From sequence record NC_070982.1: a stretch of 64,000 nt of DNA, one strand, 5' to 3'. The stretch's first letter is position 1; each line of letters opens with the position of its first letter. Source of the DNA: Escherichia phage vB_EcoP-101114UKE3. Below the pieces are notes generated by a model. It did no database searches and had not been told where the DNA came from. It saw nothing but the letters and a program-made list of their open reading frames with translations. This document shows, one piece after another, positions 14,149-34,685 of the stretch. The translations under genes were made by a program, and so were the position numbers.

Positions 14149-14159
14149 ATAATGTATAT
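14149..14159 (+). promoter_or_regulatory. phage-specific promoter-like motif TAATGTATATA
   Basis: motif 36 nt upstream of ATG 14195; near-identical copies upstream of three minus-strand genes. Confidence 0.5.
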
Positions 14160-23211: not shown

Positions 23212-23268
23212 ATTAATATTTCCTTATATAAATTTAAGATTGTTGCTCTCTTTGAGCGGTTTGTATAC

Positions 23269-23279
23269 TATATACATTA
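23269..23279 (-). promoter_or_regulatory. promoter-like motif TAATGTATATA (minus)
   Basis: about 60 nt upstream of SSB start. Confidence 0.45.
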
Positions 23280-23341
23280 CACTTATACAGATAAGGTTCT
23301 ATTATACTATAACCTTTTTGGTAGTAGATAATGACAAGTAG

Positions 23342-23352
23342 TAATGTATATA
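23342..23352 (+). promoter_or_regulatory. promoter-like motif TAATGTATATA (plus, divergent)
   Basis: exact motif on plus strand in 410-bp ORF-free region; no downstream plus-strand gene. Confidence 0.35.
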
Positions 23353-23625
23353 TGGTATAGCTAGTAAAGCTATTGCAGGCTTGTATATTGGGCAATCATT
23401 GTAACCCTTGCAAGTACCGAAGGGCAGGAGACACCTGCGAGATAAAATAGAGAATTAAGGAAATCCTTGATTTAGGTTGTAGGGACTCCTAGGGACTTTG
23501 ATTCTCTATTTAAAAGAATATTAATTACTTACTACCTAAATAATTAACTAACTTACTTAAACCAAACTCAAGAATAATAGATAAAAAGATTATTCCTAAG
23601 AAAGCTAAAAAGTAAAGGATATAAG

Positions 23626-24246
23626 TTACCATTCAAGTAAACCTTTAAAGTTAGTTTGTTCTACTATCCTCTGATAAGGTAAGTTAGATTCTGCTTGTTT
23701 GCTTAACACCTCTTGTACTTTATCAGTAATTGAATAATCTTTTTGTAATAAAGAAGCTACCCACTCTTTCCTACTTTCCAGTTCTTTTCTAATCTCTTGC
23801 AGAGACACAGCTCTGTAATCAATTTGTTCCATAGAAGTACAGAAGTATCTCCAATCTCTGATAGTAGAATTATGAGTATGAGCATAGATATTATACTTTC
23901 CTCTCATTTCATCAGAGTGAATAGGAATATGAGTTACCCAAAACTCTTTGTACTTATAATCACCACTGATGTGTCTAAAGACTTTCATCATATCAGGGAG
24001 AAGTTCTAATCTGTCATGGTTTCCTAAGACAAGATGTTTCTCTCCTTTTACTTCAGCGATAATATCAAGTGCATATTTCTCAAACACCCAATCACCTGTA
24101 AAGAAAGTTTTATCACGTTTAGTAACATGGTCAAACGCTGCTAAGATAGCTTTGTCGTGTTCTTCAATACTACTAAACTTCTTCCTAAAGTTACAGATGT
24201 TACGATGGCCTAGGTGACCATCACCTGCAAAATAAACTTCAGCCAT
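23626..24246 (-). CDS. calcineurin-like metallophosphoesterase
   Basis: GDGHLGH ... GNHD motifs. Confidence 0.65.
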   Translation of the reverse strand: MAEVYFAGDGHLGHRNICNFRKKFSSIEEHDKAILAAFDHVTKRDKTFFTGDWVFEKYALDIIAEVKGEKHLVLGNHDRLELLPDMMKVFRHISGDYKYKEFWVTHIPIHSDEMRGKYNIYAHTHNSTIRDWRYFCTSMEQIDYRAVSLQEIRKELESRKEWVASLLQKDYSITDKVQEVLSKQAESNLPYQRIVEQTNFKGLLEW

Positions 24247-29826: not shown

Positions 29827-29836
29827 GTATACATTA
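29827..29836 (-). promoter_or_regulatory. promoter-like motif TAATGTATAC
   Basis: variant of TAATGTATATA about 35 nt upstream of start at 29792. Confidence 0.35.
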
Positions 29837-32389: not shown

Positions 32390-32605
32390 TTAGTAATGAA
32401 TCTTTTTATAAATCAGGTTGCTTCCACTTTCTGTTTCAATCCCTTTCTGGATTGTAATCTTAGAAGCACCGGTATTAGCAATTTTTAAAGCTCGTTTAAA
32501 GCGGCGAGCCTCTCTCCGTGTTGTGTATGAGGAGAAGCTAGGGATTGTACTATCAAAATTAAACCACTTAACTACCCAAAAAGTAATCCAAGGTTTCTTT
32601 TCCAT
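32390..32605 (-). CDS. small protein, TR(Q/R)EAR family paralog
   Basis: TRREARRFKRAL ... KKIHY shared with 34470..34685 and 34685..34897. Confidence 0.4.
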   Translation of the reverse strand: MEKKPWITFWVVKWFNFDSTIPSFSSYTTRREARRFKRALKIANTGASKITIQKGIETESGSNLIYKKIHY

Positions 32606-33072: not shown

Positions 33073-33258
33073 TTATAGCATACAAAGAATAATAACAAGA
33101 GGTAGTGTTATAGCAAAATGTACCAGAACAACACTACCTAGCTTGATAGCTTTAACATCCTCTTCTGCTGGGTTTTCTTTAATTGCTAAATTTCGAGCTT
33201 TATATATAACAGTACCAACTATTAACGACCACACGGCCCACACAATCAGTGAAATCAT
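33073..33258 (-). CDS. small membrane protein (tandem paralog)
   Basis: two TM segments; similar to 33268..33489. Confidence 0.45.
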   Translation of the reverse strand: MISLIVWAVWSLIVGTVIYKARNLAIKENPAEEDVKAIKLGSVVLVHFAITLPLVIILCML

Positions 33259-33267
33259 ATCAAACCC

Positions 33268-33489
33268 TTATGCAGTCAACAGGTGGAGAAGGAAAGGAAT
33301 GACAACAGAGAAGACTACCAGAGCAATGCTGCCATGTTTAATGGGTTTAGCGTCATTCGGGTTCTCTTTAAGCATCTGTTTCTGAGCTACATAAACGATA
33401 CCGCCAACAAAAATTGCCCATACAGACCATACGATTGCTGAAAACATACTCATATCCTTATAAAGAAGTTCGCCCCACCTCTTGAACAA
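33268..33489 (-). CDS. small membrane protein (tandem paralog)
   Basis: two TM segments. Confidence 0.45.
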   Translation of the reverse strand: MFKRWGELLYKDMSMFSAIVWSVWAIFVGGIVYVAQKQMLKENPNDAKPIKHGSIALVVFSVVIPFLLHLLTA

Positions 33490-33510
33490 AGAGACAGGGC
33501 GGAGGTTTGA

Positions 33511-34086
33511 TTAGTAAGACACATCACCACTGGAGTGGGACATGTTGCTCTTGACGAAGTAACAGAACTTGCCAAGACCTTCATTAATTTCTTGAAGCAT
33601 ACTCTGGTCCACTGGATAGGTGCACAAGTCTGAATCAAACTCATCCATCTTCTCAATGATACACATAAGAGTCATGCACATGTCGGAAAGCATACCGTCC
33701 ATGTCAAGATCAGCGTTACCTTCTCGGAACCAAGCATGACCTAAATAATTACTAGCAGTAGCATCCACTTTAACACAATGAAAGCGCATACGCTCTGCTA
33801 TTCGGTCGCCTGCCTCACGAGCATAATCTTCTAGTTCATCGAACATACCATGAACACCTTGGAAACCAGCTCCAGAGACGTTCCAGTGGTAGTTCTTTGC
33901 TTTGATGTGTAGAAGTTCAAGGTTAGCTTGCACACCACACAAGATGTGTTCTAAGCTGTTACCGCTAATCAGTTTATTCATTCCCTCAAGACGAGAGATA
34001 GAAGAGTCAGTAGCAGAGAATGGGTTGCTAGAACCCACTCGTGTTAGTTCTGGTAAGTCGAAGACATTATTATGCATTAGGTGCAT
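33511..34086 (-). CDS. Dps/ferritin-like protein
   Basis: YHWNVSGAGFQGVHGMFDELEDYAREAGDRIAER matches Dps ferroxidase-site region. Confidence 0.55.
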   Translation of the reverse strand: MHLMHNNVFDLPELTRVGSSNPFSATDSSISRLEGMNKLISGNSLEHILCGVQANLELLHIKAKNYHWNVSGAGFQGVHGMFDELEDYAREAGDRIAERMRFHCVKVDATASNYLGHAWFREGNADLDMDGMLSDMCMTLMCIIEKMDEFDSDLCTYPVDQSMLQEINEGLGKFCYFVKSNMSHSSGDVSY

Positions 34087-34399
34087 CCCCTTCTAAGTTA
34101 GTTGAATTAGCTACATTACGAGCAATGTTATCCATGACCTGCTGTGTAATAACAATGCAATTCTGAGGGTCTACTGATTTAGAACGCCCCATCTCAGGGT
34201 CATAGACTTTGACTCGCTTGGCTGTTGAGCCAGTAACTTGCAACACTTTGAGAAGATAGCCTTGGTTTCCAATAGACCATGCAACAACATCACGATTCTT
34301 GATATAACGACCAAGCATGTCACGATGATAGAACTGCTGCATAACTTTAGCTTTGCTAATCTCTTCAGATGGCGGGGCCACTTTACTCAAATCTAACAT
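34070..34399 (-). CDS. hypothetical protein
   Basis: second ATG (MLDLSKV, 34399) has AGGAG SD; promoter motif just upstream. Confidence 0.4.
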   Translation of the reverse strand: MLDLSKVAPPSEEISKAKVMQQFYHRDMLGRYIKNRDVVAWSIGNQGYLLKVLQVTGSTAKRVKVYDPEMGRSKSVDPQNCIVITQQVMDNIARNVANSTNLEGDAPNA

Positions 34400-34435
34400 A
34401 ACTCTCTCCTGTTTCATACAATATTCTTATACTGT

Positions 34436-34446
34436 ATATACATTTG
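34436..34446 (-). promoter_or_regulatory. promoter-like motif AAATGTATATA
   Basis: about 37 nt upstream of start at 34399. Confidence 0.45.
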
Positions 34447-34469
34447 AGAGTTATCATATCTACTACCAA

Positions 34470-34685
34470 CTAGTAATAAACCTTGCTGGATATGAATCCA
34501 GCACTGTTATGGATATTTTCAATCCAACGATGAATCTCCACCTTTTCAGCGATTCCTAAAGCTTTTGTAGCTTTTATAGTTTTCTTAGCAAGACGAGCCT
34601 CTTGTCTTGTGTTGAATAATTGAATACAATCACCACCAAGAGCTTTGTTAGCCCATTTAGTACGAACTGCCCATAATTTATCCAT
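34470..34685 (-). CDS. small protein, TR(Q/R)EAR family paralog
   Basis: NTRQEARLAKK. Confidence 0.4.
   Translation of the reverse strand: MDKLWAVRTKWANKALGGDCIQLFNTRQEARLAKKTIKATKALGIAEKVEIHRWIENIHNSAGFISSKVYY

Follow-up and report, generated by a model that had tools for sequence, protein, structure and literature searches.

A Dps-family mini-ferritin with a conserved ferroxidase site, encoded downstream of a middle-promoter element in a Kuravirus genome

The stretch of 64,000 nucleotides of Escherichia phage vB_EcoP-101114UKE3 analysed here (NC_070982.1; hereafter the window) represents the genome of a Kuravirus, a prolate podophage of the phiEco32 type. On its minus strand, at 33511..34077, this genome encodes a genuine Dps-family mini-ferritin, whose identity is backed by sequence, by fold and by conservation of the metal ligands. 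The best explanation for its presence, and one that we regard as reasonably probable, is that the mini-ferritin lowers free Fe2+ and H2O2 during replication. A Dps/ferritin-like protein downstream of a phage-type promoter had been proposed in a previous, sequence-only reading of this DNA; a check for a missing ferritin match, or for ligands lost in a proper alignment, encountered neither.

The minus-strand open reading frame from 33511 to 34086 described in that reading exists, but the start at its outer end is probably not the one used: the second ATG, in the same frame and 9 nt further inside at 34077, is the likely start and gives 188 amino acids followed by a stop codon. An AAGGGG ribosome-binding site (34087..34092, minus strand, read from the sequence) precedes this ATG by 9 nt, and the start overlaps the stop codon of the upstream gene (ATGCATAA). 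The resulting N-terminus agrees with that conserved in close homologues of the Kuravirus type, and the start agrees with the annotation of a 100%-identical record, MZ234015. The peptide originally quoted for the Dps assignment (YHWNVSGAGFQGVHGMFDELEDYAREAGDRIAER) is present in the frame and corresponds to residues 63-96 of the protein, which contains six cysteines. Comparison with the phiEco32 gene gives a pN of 0.11 and a pS of 0.71; because a pS of around 0.7 means that synonymous sites are saturated, only the contrast between the two values is usable, not a dN/dS ratio. This contrast shows the gene to be under strong purifying selection.

Chance cannot account for the similarity to Dps. In the profile HMM search that had been suggested as a check, the Pfam family Ferritin (PF00210) matches above its gathering cutoff (E=7e-8, 32.9 bits versus 24.5), in an alignment that spans residues 59-102 only, and a weak Pfam match to DUF2538 (E=0.12) stays under the cutoff. 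PHROG 3636 is the sole PHROGs family matched (E=1e-52). Of PDB sequences, 68 are listed at E<=1, nearly all of them from the Dps family, the best of those listed reaching 7e-10, and the library representatives with E<=1e-3 number 549. In NCBIfam only Dps models match, NF006975 with 34.7 bits (cutoff 114) and NF041388 with 31.1 bits (cutoff 170). As these scores lie far under the NCBIfam equivalog cutoffs, the phage protein is no orthologue of host Dps; judged from its sequence, it is a divergent phage branch of the family and not a copy of the host dps gene. The Dps proteins of C3 podophages form a clade of their own in a rough neighbour-joining tree.

The AlphaFold model has a mean pLDDT of 82.6, with values >90 across the helical bundle. 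Helices A (residues 42-66), B (72-99), C (126-151) and D (155-177) are predicted, together with a short BC helix (108-113) that sits in the long crossover loop, as in the Dps four-helix bundle. They are preceded by an N-terminal extension of approximately 41 residues in which a helix, at 26-38, is predicted at low confidence. Foldseek superposes the full-length model on solved Dps chains, including Mycobacterium smegmatis Dps2, Kineococcus Dps, Bacillus anthracis Dlp and Escherichia coli Dps, with a target TM of 0.8-0.9 and an rmsd of 1.2-2.7 A for the best-fitting chains.

The ferroxidase centre maps to a segment of helices A and B (33793..33897, minus strand) identified by alignment with E. 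coli K-12 Dps. The match to the Dps ferroxidase-site region reported earlier is borne out, as every ligand residue is present: K61, H64, W65, H76, D80, D91 and E95 correspond one-to-one to K48/H51/W52/H63/D67/D78/E82 of E. coli Dps, the ligand list for which is taken from PMC6150300. All seven are invariant in 24 sequences of the phage clade, with the exception of D80, which is conserved at 90% or more, and the full set of seven recurs in the proteins of Privateer, 7-11 and LAh_8. Among 188 homologues, the H/H/D residues are found in 188, the glutamate in 185, and aspartate or glutamate at position 80 in 161; ligand conservation across the whole clade extends to 33-43% identity. The ligands that are kept are split between two chains, and at least a two-fold dimer is therefore implied.

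Upstream of the gene, a motif search identifies a phage middle-promoter element, AAATGTATA, at 34437..34445 on the minus strand. The phage-type promoter motif of the initial description is thus real: read from 34445 to 34437, it is identical in sequence to the published P68 element of phiEco32 and occupies the same location, 37 nt upstream of the start codon of the gene-68 homologue. P68 is listed for phiEco32 and five relatives among predicted promoters (Table S3, PMC8948821). It matches tAATGTAtA, the consensus for promoters read by gp36, the sigma factor of the phage; six phiEco32 promoters identified by experiment served to define this consensus. Transcription begins 6-8 nt downstream of the gp36 element, and from this published spacing a start would be expected at about 34429-34431. 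The intergenic DNA of the P68 region is 88-94% identical to that of phiEco32, Bas93, Bas89 and EP335 and 100% identical to that of SU7, a degree of conservation that contrasts with the saturated synonymous sites in the neighbouring gene. Three more copies, TAATGTATA, are located at 14150 (+), 23279 (-) and 29836 (-), at positions that fit published promoters. The one at 29836 is the next minus-strand copy downstream of P68, which upholds the earlier placement of the Dps gene in an operon that starts at the promoter motif. In the proposed arrangement, the Dps gene would be second in a transcription unit driven from the gp36-dependent middle promoter P68, and the unit would run on into genes of nucleotide metabolism encoding thioredoxin, ThyX and PhoH.

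A hairpin with 13 base pairs, including three G-U pairs, starts 9 nt past the Dps stop codon (33471..33501, minus strand) and is followed by AACUUCUUUAU. It is kept in all six genomes compared. In the window, this tail is a weak U-run and the z-score of the fold is only -1.6; Bas93 has a cleaner, rebuilt version whose 3' arm differs and next to which a U-run lies (z-score -3.3, tail UUUUCUCUUU). Apart from this rebuilt arm, no compensatory pair changes are found among the six genomes. The phage promoter motif is missing from the genes downstream of the hairpin, and for this reason incomplete termination is favoured: the terminator-like hairpin is more likely an attenuator or a 3'-end stabiliser.

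The first gene behind P68 (34070..34399, minus strand) encodes a homologue of phiEco32 gp68 (phrog_10984), a basic protein of 109 amino acids with a pI of 9.1. Its start at 34399 is preceded by a ribosome-binding site, AGGAGAGAG. The gp68 stop codon and the Dps start overlap by 8 nt, and translation of Dps is coupled to that of gp68, as judged from the layout of the two genes. Genes 67 and 68 are present in 129 and 133 phage records, respectively, with a genus breakdown that is equal bar one E. coli phage record, and the Dps and gp68 genes co-occur in all lineages of C3 podophages. The partner protein is basic in all four lineages (pI 9.1-9.7). Its model, of low confidence (pLDDT 66), displays a small SH3/Tudor-like beta-barrel between helices, for which Foldseek returns weak matches, with an E of 3e-3 at best, to Tudor, PWWP, KOW and integrase SH3-like domains. 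No Pfam family matches gp68, and the sole match among PDB profiles, a designed propeller protein, is judged spurious. A search of PADLOC for a defence or anti-defence role gave no match for either gp68 or the Dps protein.

By analogy with solved Dps proteins, the phage protein is predicted to assemble into a hollow cage of 12 subunits, in which ferroxidase sites would be shared by two-fold-related subunits, H64, H76 and D80 (with K61 and W65) facing D91 and E95. Fe2+ would be oxidised at these sites, preferentially with H2O2, and Fe3+ would be stored within the cage. In the replication phase, the protein may thereby keep free Fe2+ and H2O2 low, and the putative targets of this protection are replicating phage DNA and redox-sensitive enzymes of nucleotide synthesis. 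The protection would fall in the period when host transcription, that of host dps included, is shutting off. What we infer here is the 12-mer, its enzyme activity and its role in the cell, the likeliest role being removal of Fe2+ and H2O2 while the phage replicates and nucleotides are synthesised. Iron sequestration and oxidative protection, both mentioned in the sequence-only reading, appear a reasonable fit to the intact ferroxidase site. That the mini-ferritin and its partner are kept in every prolate-podophage lineage, under purifying selection, points to a need to control iron and peroxide in infection.

In every lineage examined, the Dps gene is found amid genes of nucleotide metabolism, those for ThyX, thioredoxin, dCTP deaminase, PhoH, NrdD/NrdG, GrcA and a stand-alone ATP-cone protein. 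The Dps gene of an unrelated Streptomyces phage lies approximately 2.4 kb from ThyX and approximately 3 kb from ribonucleotide reductase. Among the best 80 viral Dps loci of IMG/VR, the partner gene, ThyX or NrdD is present near only two, both C3-like, in the flanking DNA stored for each locus (6 kb at most). A general viral link between Dps and ThyX or ribonucleotide reductase is not supported, as the flanks of the other 78 contain none of the three. The association of Dps with ThyX and ribonucleotide reductase is mostly the inherited gene order of one lineage.

Other readings of the protein have been put forward or can be envisaged. It is unlikely that, in line with its label in most GenBank records, it acts mainly by binding or compacting phage DNA or the host nucleoid, possibly with gp68 as a DNA-contacting adaptor. 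Cellular Dps proteins such as that of E. coli do condense DNA, in the latter case relying on a tail with three Lys and one Arg (PMC6150300), and the short N-termini of Privateer, 7-11 and LAh_8, with 3-5 Lys/Arg, resemble such DNA-binding tails; the partner, in addition, is basic in four lineages, is modelled as a small beta-barrel with weak structural matches and is encoded by a gene translationally coupled to that of Dps. The Kuravirus protein, however, has a pI of 4.8 and a net charge of -14 per chain. Its N-terminal 41 residues include 3 K/R and 4 D/E, its C-terminal 11 residues contain no K/R, and a Lys/Arg-rich tail of the type used by E. coli Dps to bind DNA is absent from both termini. 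Membership of the Dps family at large does not depend on such a tail. The Kuravirus protein probably does not bind DNA through a tail of its own and, because it is acidic and without a basic tail, nucleoid remodelling, the third role mentioned in the original description, is a poorer fit. The gp68 model and its fold matches are as weak as stated above, and a purely architectural role needs no invariant ferroxidase site. The same site tells against a catalytically dead Dps fold recruited for another task, such as scaffolding or the inhibition of a host factor, a reading that we consider exceedingly improbable. Such a fate could be read from the confinement of the Pfam match to residues 59-102, from the divergent C-terminal half, in which the usual D-x-x-T-x-D at the start of helix D is YPVDQS in Kuraviruses, and from the unusual N-terminal extension and the six cysteines; yet all ferroxidase ligands are kept clade-wide down to 33-43% identity, a complete four-helix bundle is predicted with a pLDDT above 90, and selection is strongly purifying. 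The label of integrase, carried by dozens of GenBank Kuravirus records, can be dismissed. It has product names in its favour and nothing else (for example MZ234015, IME267 and KBNP1711), and the copy in phage vB_EcoP-101114BS3, 100% identical to the window protein, is mislabelled in this way. Neither Pfam nor NCBIfam nor PHROGs reveals an integrase or recombinase family, and the fold is the Dps helical bundle; family and fold searches thus rule the label out.

A location in or on the virion has to be weighed against more direct observations. Mass spectrometry detected the Dps protein in preparations of both SU10 and Privateer (SU10 and Privateer papers): in SU10 through 6 peptides that gave 35.8% coverage, gp68 being detected as well, and in Privateer in doubly CsCl-purified particles, a sample that allowed the authors to verify ten proteins predicted to be virion-associated. 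The protein might therefore reside in the prolate head or on the particle and be delivered with the genome or stabilise it, a reading to which the joint presence of genes 67 and 68 in essentially all C3 prolate podophages and the Dps-fold domains in uncultured-phage proteins named prohead protease can be added. We nevertheless deem it quite improbable. The SU10 sample was not free of non-structural proteins, since DNA polymerase, sigma factor, PhoH and thioredoxin were also identified in it; the later cryo-EM study of SU10 gives gp20-24 as the ejection proteins, and Dps is absent from its text and supplements; the gene belongs to the middle/replication module, outside the structural module; and a dense, iron-loaded cage could, as we infer, co-band with phage. 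Of the five Dps homologues of greatest length (276-777 aa), four show no protease or scaffold domain in Pfam or PHROGs, and a fusion of Dps with a capsid protease was rejected. Six shorter homologues, scanned with Pfam alone, contain only Ferritin, and no mass-spectrometry table was found in the Privateer supplements. There is similarly little likelihood that the Dps cage and gp68 constitute a module specific to C3 podophages and tied to the virion or to the packaged or incoming genome. This proposal draws on the co-occurrence and coupling of the two genes, on the detection in SU10 and Privateer and on the Dps domains in proteins named prohead protease; in one version, an iron-handling cage is carried in or on the particle. 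If true, it would make the Dps cage more than a cytoplasmic antioxidant. A purely cytoplasmic role leaves the detection in doubly CsCl-purified Privateer virions unexplained.

The Dps identity of this gene has been known since the phiEco32 genome annotation of 2008, in which GenBank describes phi32_67 as "DNA-binding protein, member of the Dps family"; the papers on SU10 and on Privateer likewise noted the Dps domain. With the family assignment that old, little is gained by way of discovery. The literature search on the function of phage-encoded Dps returned annotation and speculation only, and no functional study. The consequences for annotation are more tangible: the integrase label can wrongly mark strictly lytic therapy candidates as temperate, and there is little basis for calling the Kuravirus version a "DNA-binding protein", a label that is doubtful for a protein that is acidic and has no basic N-terminal tail. 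The repeated detection of Dps in virion preparations invites an explanation.

Several known systems provide points of comparison. For the virion reading alone, encapsulins offer an analogy: they hold ferritin-superfamily cargo inside an HK97-fold shell, and the Dps-fold domains in proteins named prohead protease hint at a similar arrangement. Unlike encapsulin cargo, the phage Dps shows no evidence of a targeting peptide or of encapsidation, and its gene lies outside the structural module. Phage-encoded proteins of the same superfamily occur in Lactobacillus plantarum myophages, in 'Gratiaviridae' gut phages, in Bacillus phage G (gp346) and on IMG/VR contigs, and for these, too, protection from iron and reactive oxygen has been proposed; they are distant in sequence (14-30% identity) and differ in having neither a gp68-like partner nor the ThyX/NrdD neighbourhood. 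Among cellular proteins, M. smegmatis Dps2 (PDB 2z90, 4m35) is the best sequence match of those listed (E=7e-10). Together with other actinobacterial and Bacillus Dps proteins it also provides the best structural matches, with a target TM of 0.82-0.91 and an rmsd of 1.4-2.4 A at approximately 23% identity in the structural alignment. We know of no gp68-like partner for Dps proteins of Actinobacteria or Bacillus. E. coli Dps (b0812) has the same four-helix-bundle fold and identical ferroxidase residues (K/H/W/H/D/D/E), but the identity amounts to 19%, and the phage protein scores below the NCBIfam equivalog cutoff. In place of the lysine-rich N-terminal tail of the E. coli protein, the phage protein has a neutral to acidic extension of approximately 41 residues, and it is the more acidic of the two (pI 4.8 versus 5.7, net charge -14 versus -4). 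In contrast to the E. coli gene, moreover, the phage gene is driven from a promoter of the phage sigma factor and has a partner gene to which it is coupled. The closest counterpart is phiEco32 gp67 (phi32_67, ABY52868), which is 84% identical to the window protein and whose gene has the same position, following gene 68 downstream of P68 and preceding thioredoxin and ThyX. Relative to this protein, to SU10 CDS67 and to Privateer QIN94861 nothing substantive differs, and the window copy is a sequence variant of the same phage Dps.

The genome of vB_EcoP-101114UKE3 carries on its minus strand an ORF at 33511..34086 (191 aa), which the sequence-only reading had assigned to a Dps/ferritin-like protein; the ORF listing contains it, and the peptide quoted for the assignment lies inside it. 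The ORF stands, but its start is probably the second ATG. The first ATG (34086) immediately adjoins a GGGG run, and the second (34077) has AAGGGG 9 nt upstream and shares bases with the preceding gene's stop codon (ATGCATAA). Close, Kuravirus-type homologues share a conserved MH-NN-F-LP N-terminus that begins at or beside the second Met, and in the 100% identical record MZ234015 the CDS starts at 34077. On the strength of this spacing, the homologous N-termini and the MZ234015 start, the gene for the Dps-like mini-ferritin is best placed at 33511..34077 (-), encoding 188 aa. Nucleotide comparison of the surrounding 2-kb stretch returned 97 matching records: vB_EcoP-101114BS3 is 100% identical, HC-25922, Bas87, IME267 and ECBP2 show 95–99.5% identity across the whole stretch, SU7 shows 96.6% over 95% of it, and 64 of the 97 fall in the 80–90% band. 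These phages belong to Kuravirus/Gordonclarkvirinae, a group of lytic E. coli podophages whose heads are strongly elongated (C3) and which are related to phiEco32.

The identity of the product as a member of the Dps family is close to certain. Pfam assigns Ferritin (PF00210) at 32.9 bits, where the gathering score is 24.5 (E=7e-8), with only residues 59–102 aligned, and the match to PHROG 3636 ("DNA binding protein") spans the full length (1e-52). The NCBIfam matches are Dps models only, all far under their equivalog cutoffs (34.7 versus 114 bits). Nearly all of the 68 PDB sequences listed by phmmer at E≤1 are Dps-family proteins, led by Mycobacterium smegmatis Dps2 (7e-10). Scanned exhaustively, 1.84 billion cluster representatives yielded 549 proteins at E≤1e-3 and only 12 at E≤1e-10; by these comparisons the phage protein is a small, divergent branch within a large family. 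An AlphaFold model built with 24 homologues (mean pLDDT 82.6, helical core >90) displays the Dps layout, with helices A (42–66), B (72–99), a short BC (108–113), C (126–151) and D (155–177), and an additional helix of low confidence at 26–38. The entire top 50 of a Foldseek search against the PDB consists of solved Dps structures, including those of M. smegmatis, Kineococcus, Bacillus anthracis (Dlp-1/Dlp-2), Treponema (TpF1), B. subtilis (MrgA) and E. coli, with target-normalised TM scores of 0.8–0.9 and an rmsd of 1.2–2.7 Å for the best-fitting chains. Given this superposition, the C-terminal half that Pfam cannot align is still predicted to fold as Dps.

The metal site points the same way. 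In E. coli Dps the iron sites lie between adjacent subunits, one formed by H51, H63 and E82' and the other by K48, D67 and D78' (PMC6150300). Alignment of E. coli K-12 dps, taken from the genome, with the phage clade equates K48, H51, W52, H63, D67, D78 and E82 with phage K61, H64, W65, H76, D80, D91 and E95, all seven residues being kept. Six of the seven are invariant and D80 is kept in at least 90% of 24 phage-clade proteins reaching down to 38% identity; in Privateer, 7-11 and LAh_8, more distant C3 podophages, all seven are identical. Among 188 aligned homologues both His and Asp91 occur in every one, Trp65 in 186, Glu95 in 185, and Asp or Glu at position 80 in 161. The ligands are thus retained in a proper alignment, and the assignment survives the check that the sequence-only reading had named as able to refute it, a loss of the metal ligands. 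Comparison with phiEco32 gives pN 0.11 and pS 0.71; as synonymous sites are saturated, this indicates strong purifying selection on the protein.

The finding is correct and already known: the phiEco32 GenBank record of 2008 carries the annotation "DNA-binding protein; member of the Dps family", and the same assignment appears in the papers on SU10 (2014) and Privateer (2021). Other phage Dps-like genes had been noted in Lactobacillus phages and gut "Gratiaviridae"; a literature search found no functional experiments on the proteins of any of these groups or of phiEco32-type phages. What remains of interest is the function of the protein, its conserved partner, its detection in virions and its misleading annotations. 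The gene is named 'integrase' or 'putative integrase' in many Kuravirus records, among them MZ234015, IME267, KBNP1711, PAS59, MLP3 and E20-1, and 'DNA-binding protein' or 'ferric iron binding protein' in other Kuravirus records. The integrase label is rejected, as Pfam, PHROG, NCBIfam and fold searches detect no integrase similarity; it could falsely mark lytic therapy phages as temperate.

The partner is the homologue of phiEco32 gp68 (34070..34399, -; 109 aa; phrog_10984), whose gene overlaps the Dps start by 8 nt and is translationally coupled to it. Homologues in Privateer, 7-11 and LAh_8 share 30–34% identity by alignment (35–38% by tblastn for Privateer and LAh_8) and a core of the form H-R-D-x-L-x-R ... 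W ... P-x-N-x-V-I-T/S-x-Q. In Kuraviruses, Privateer, LAh_8, BUCT695 and 100-kb metagenomic relatives the partner lies directly upstream of Dps and either overlaps or abuts the Dps start; in 7-11 the distance is 1.3 kb. Partner and Dps are found together in every lineage of C3 podophages. Across the phage collection 129 records contain the partner and 133 the Dps protein, with equal genus breakdowns bar one E. coli phage record; the remaining three with Dps only come from Synechococcus and Streptomyces phages. The SU10 paper already counted CDS67 and CDS68 among the few middle genes common to all five C3 phages then known. Within Kuravirus-like phages the partner is the more conserved of the two (92% identity to phiEco32 versus 84% for Dps). 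It is basic in every lineage (pI 9.1–9.7) and the Dps protein acidic (4.6–5.4); the coupling of the two genes and this charge complementarity are what the present analysis adds. Searches of Pfam, PDB sequences and PADLOC gave no match for the partner, and in its model, of only moderate confidence (pLDDT 66), helices flank a small barrel of five strands that weakly matches Tudor, PWWP, KOW and SH3-like domains.

Promoters dependent on gp36, the phage sigma factor, consist in phiEco32 of a single element, tAATGTAtA, 6–8 nt upstream of the start site (PMC8948821; PMC4281155), a consensus defined on six experimentally identified promoters (PMC8948821). The predicted promoters in Table S3 of that study include aAATGTATA before gene 68 in phiEco32, NJ01, ECBP2, KBNP1711, SU10 and 172-1 (PMC8948821). 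The window holds exactly this element, AAATGTATA, at 34445-34437 (-), with the ATG of the gene-68 homologue 37 nt further on; by match and placement, the phage-type promoter noticed from the sequence is this known middle promoter, P68. The intergenic region between genes 69 and 68 is 88–94% identical to phiEco32, Bas93, Bas89 and EP335, far more conserved than the saturated synonymous sites of the adjoining gene, and some 25 bases upstream of the 9-nt element (TTGGTAGTAGATATGATAACTCTC, within 34400-34480, -) are also conserved between genera. This conservation suggests regulatory information beyond the element, which may include a sigma-70 promoter such as that proposed for SU10.

Three other copies of TAATGTATA, at 14150 (+), 23279 (-) and 29836 (-), fit published promoters. 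As the next minus-strand copy is only at 29836, the operon proposed to start at P68 probably extends as far as PhoH, taking in gene 68, Dps, two small membrane proteins, thioredoxin and ThyX on the way. A 13-pair hairpin (33471..33501, -) starts 9 nt past the Dps stop codon and is kept in all six genomes compared; in the rebuilt Bas93 version the 3' arm is new and the U-run clean. No compensatory changes occur among the six and the window fold z-score is just -1.6. The hairpin is read as a probable attenuator or 3'-end stabiliser and not as a full terminator. Directly downstream are two tandem, hydrophobic phrog_9296 paralogues of ~60 aa (33073-33258 and 33268-33447, -), taken to be membrane proteins; phiEco32, Bas93, Bas89 and EP335 have a single copy. 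Elsewhere, the 23212-23625 intergenic region contains two perfect, divergent TAATGTATA elements 63 nt apart. The minus-strand copy (23271-23279) fits a published middle promoter; the plus-strand copy (23342-23350) points antisense into the minus-strand gene 23626-24246, with no plus-strand ORF of at least 150 aa downstream of it among the minus-strand middle and early genes, and could give rise to an antisense transcript, or else be a decoy or a chance occurrence.

In every lineage examined the pair sits within a replication and nucleotide-metabolism block. Kuraviruses have dCTP deaminase, thioredoxin, ThyX and PhoH around it, and Privateer has thioredoxin and a stand-alone ATP-cone protein. 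In 7-11 the ThyX gene ends where Dps starts. The neighbours in LAh_8 are NrdD, NrdG and an ATP-cone protein, those in BUCT695 are NrdD and GrcA, and the metagenomic relatives have ThyX and NrdD. The Dps-like gene of an unrelated Streptomyces phage lies ~2.4 kb from ThyX and ~3 kb from a ribonucleotide reductase. The arrangement would fit a role beside redox- and oxygen-sensitive enzymes of dNTP synthesis, an argument that is weak, since all C3-phage Dps proteins form one clade in a rough neighbour-joining tree, so that gene order may be simple inheritance, and since among the best 80 of at least 378 IMG/VR loci (flanks of at most 6 kb) ThyX, NrdD or the partner accompanied viral Dps relatives at the two C3-like loci only. 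Stand-alone phrog_36488 proteins of 90–99 aa, absent from Kuraviruses, directly follow Dps in Privateer (L004 3398-3691), 7-11 (L005 3408-3704) and LAh_8 (L006 3429-3698; weakest match, 2.8e-7); they resemble the N-terminal ATP-cone region of NrdD and may be free allosteric nucleotide sensors. Three paralogous phrog_4939 genes (65–71 aa, all on the minus strand) flank the pair, two in tandem just upstream of P68 (34470-34685 and 34685-34882) and one between thioredoxin and ThyX (32390-32605).

The best-supported reading, we infer, is that of a cage-forming mini-ferritin that would oxidize Fe2+ at ligands which subunits share, with H2O2 as the preferred oxidant, and store the iron. Its expression from the middle promoter would fall in the period when host sigma-70 transcription is shut down, which phiEco32-type phages bring about via a phage sigma-70 inhibitor (PMC8948821; PMC4281155). 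The protein would in this way reduce Fenton damage both to the DNA being replicated and to enzymes nearby. A virion-associated role appears very unlikely. Mass spectrometry did detect the protein in doubly CsCl-purified Privateer virions and, at 35.8% coverage and together with gp68, in SU10 preparations, but the SU10 sample also contained polymerase, sigma factor and PhoH, a later structural study of SU10 does not list the Dps protein, and an iron-loaded cage, being dense, could be carried along when phage particles are purified. The capsid idea is kept open by Foldseek matches among viral models (BFVD) to Dps-fold domains in 'Prohead protease'-named proteins of uncultured Caudovirales (A0A6J7XDU5, A0A6J7WPK9, A0A6J7WIS1; 333–763 aa). 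If a Dps domain were fused to a capsid-maturation protease, a mini-ferritin would end up inside the procapsid. Dps-annotated proteins of 290–679 aa are also among these matches. Pfam and PHROGs revealed no protease or scaffold domain in four long Dps homologues (276–777 aa), and Pfam found Ferritin alone, with no protease domain, in six of 208–234 aa.

A DNA-compacting role, possibly exerted through gp68, is likewise unlikely, and the comparison with the host protein bears on it. In E. coli Dps, DNA is bound by a flexible tail at the N-terminus that contains three Lys and one Arg (PMC6150300). The phage protein, at 19% identity, has instead a 41-residue N-terminal extension with 3 K/R against 4 D/E, including a conserved, predicted helical S-x-x-R-L-E/D-x-M segment, and a C-terminus devoid of K/R; each chain is also more acidic (pI 4.8, net charge -14) than that of E. 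coli Dps (pI 5.7, net -4). The "DNA-binding protein" label so widely given to the Kuravirus protein therefore derives from the name of its family and not from features of its own. Privateer, 7-11 and LAh_8 differ again: their Dps proteins are shorter (146–156 aa) and bear short basic tails at the N-terminus.
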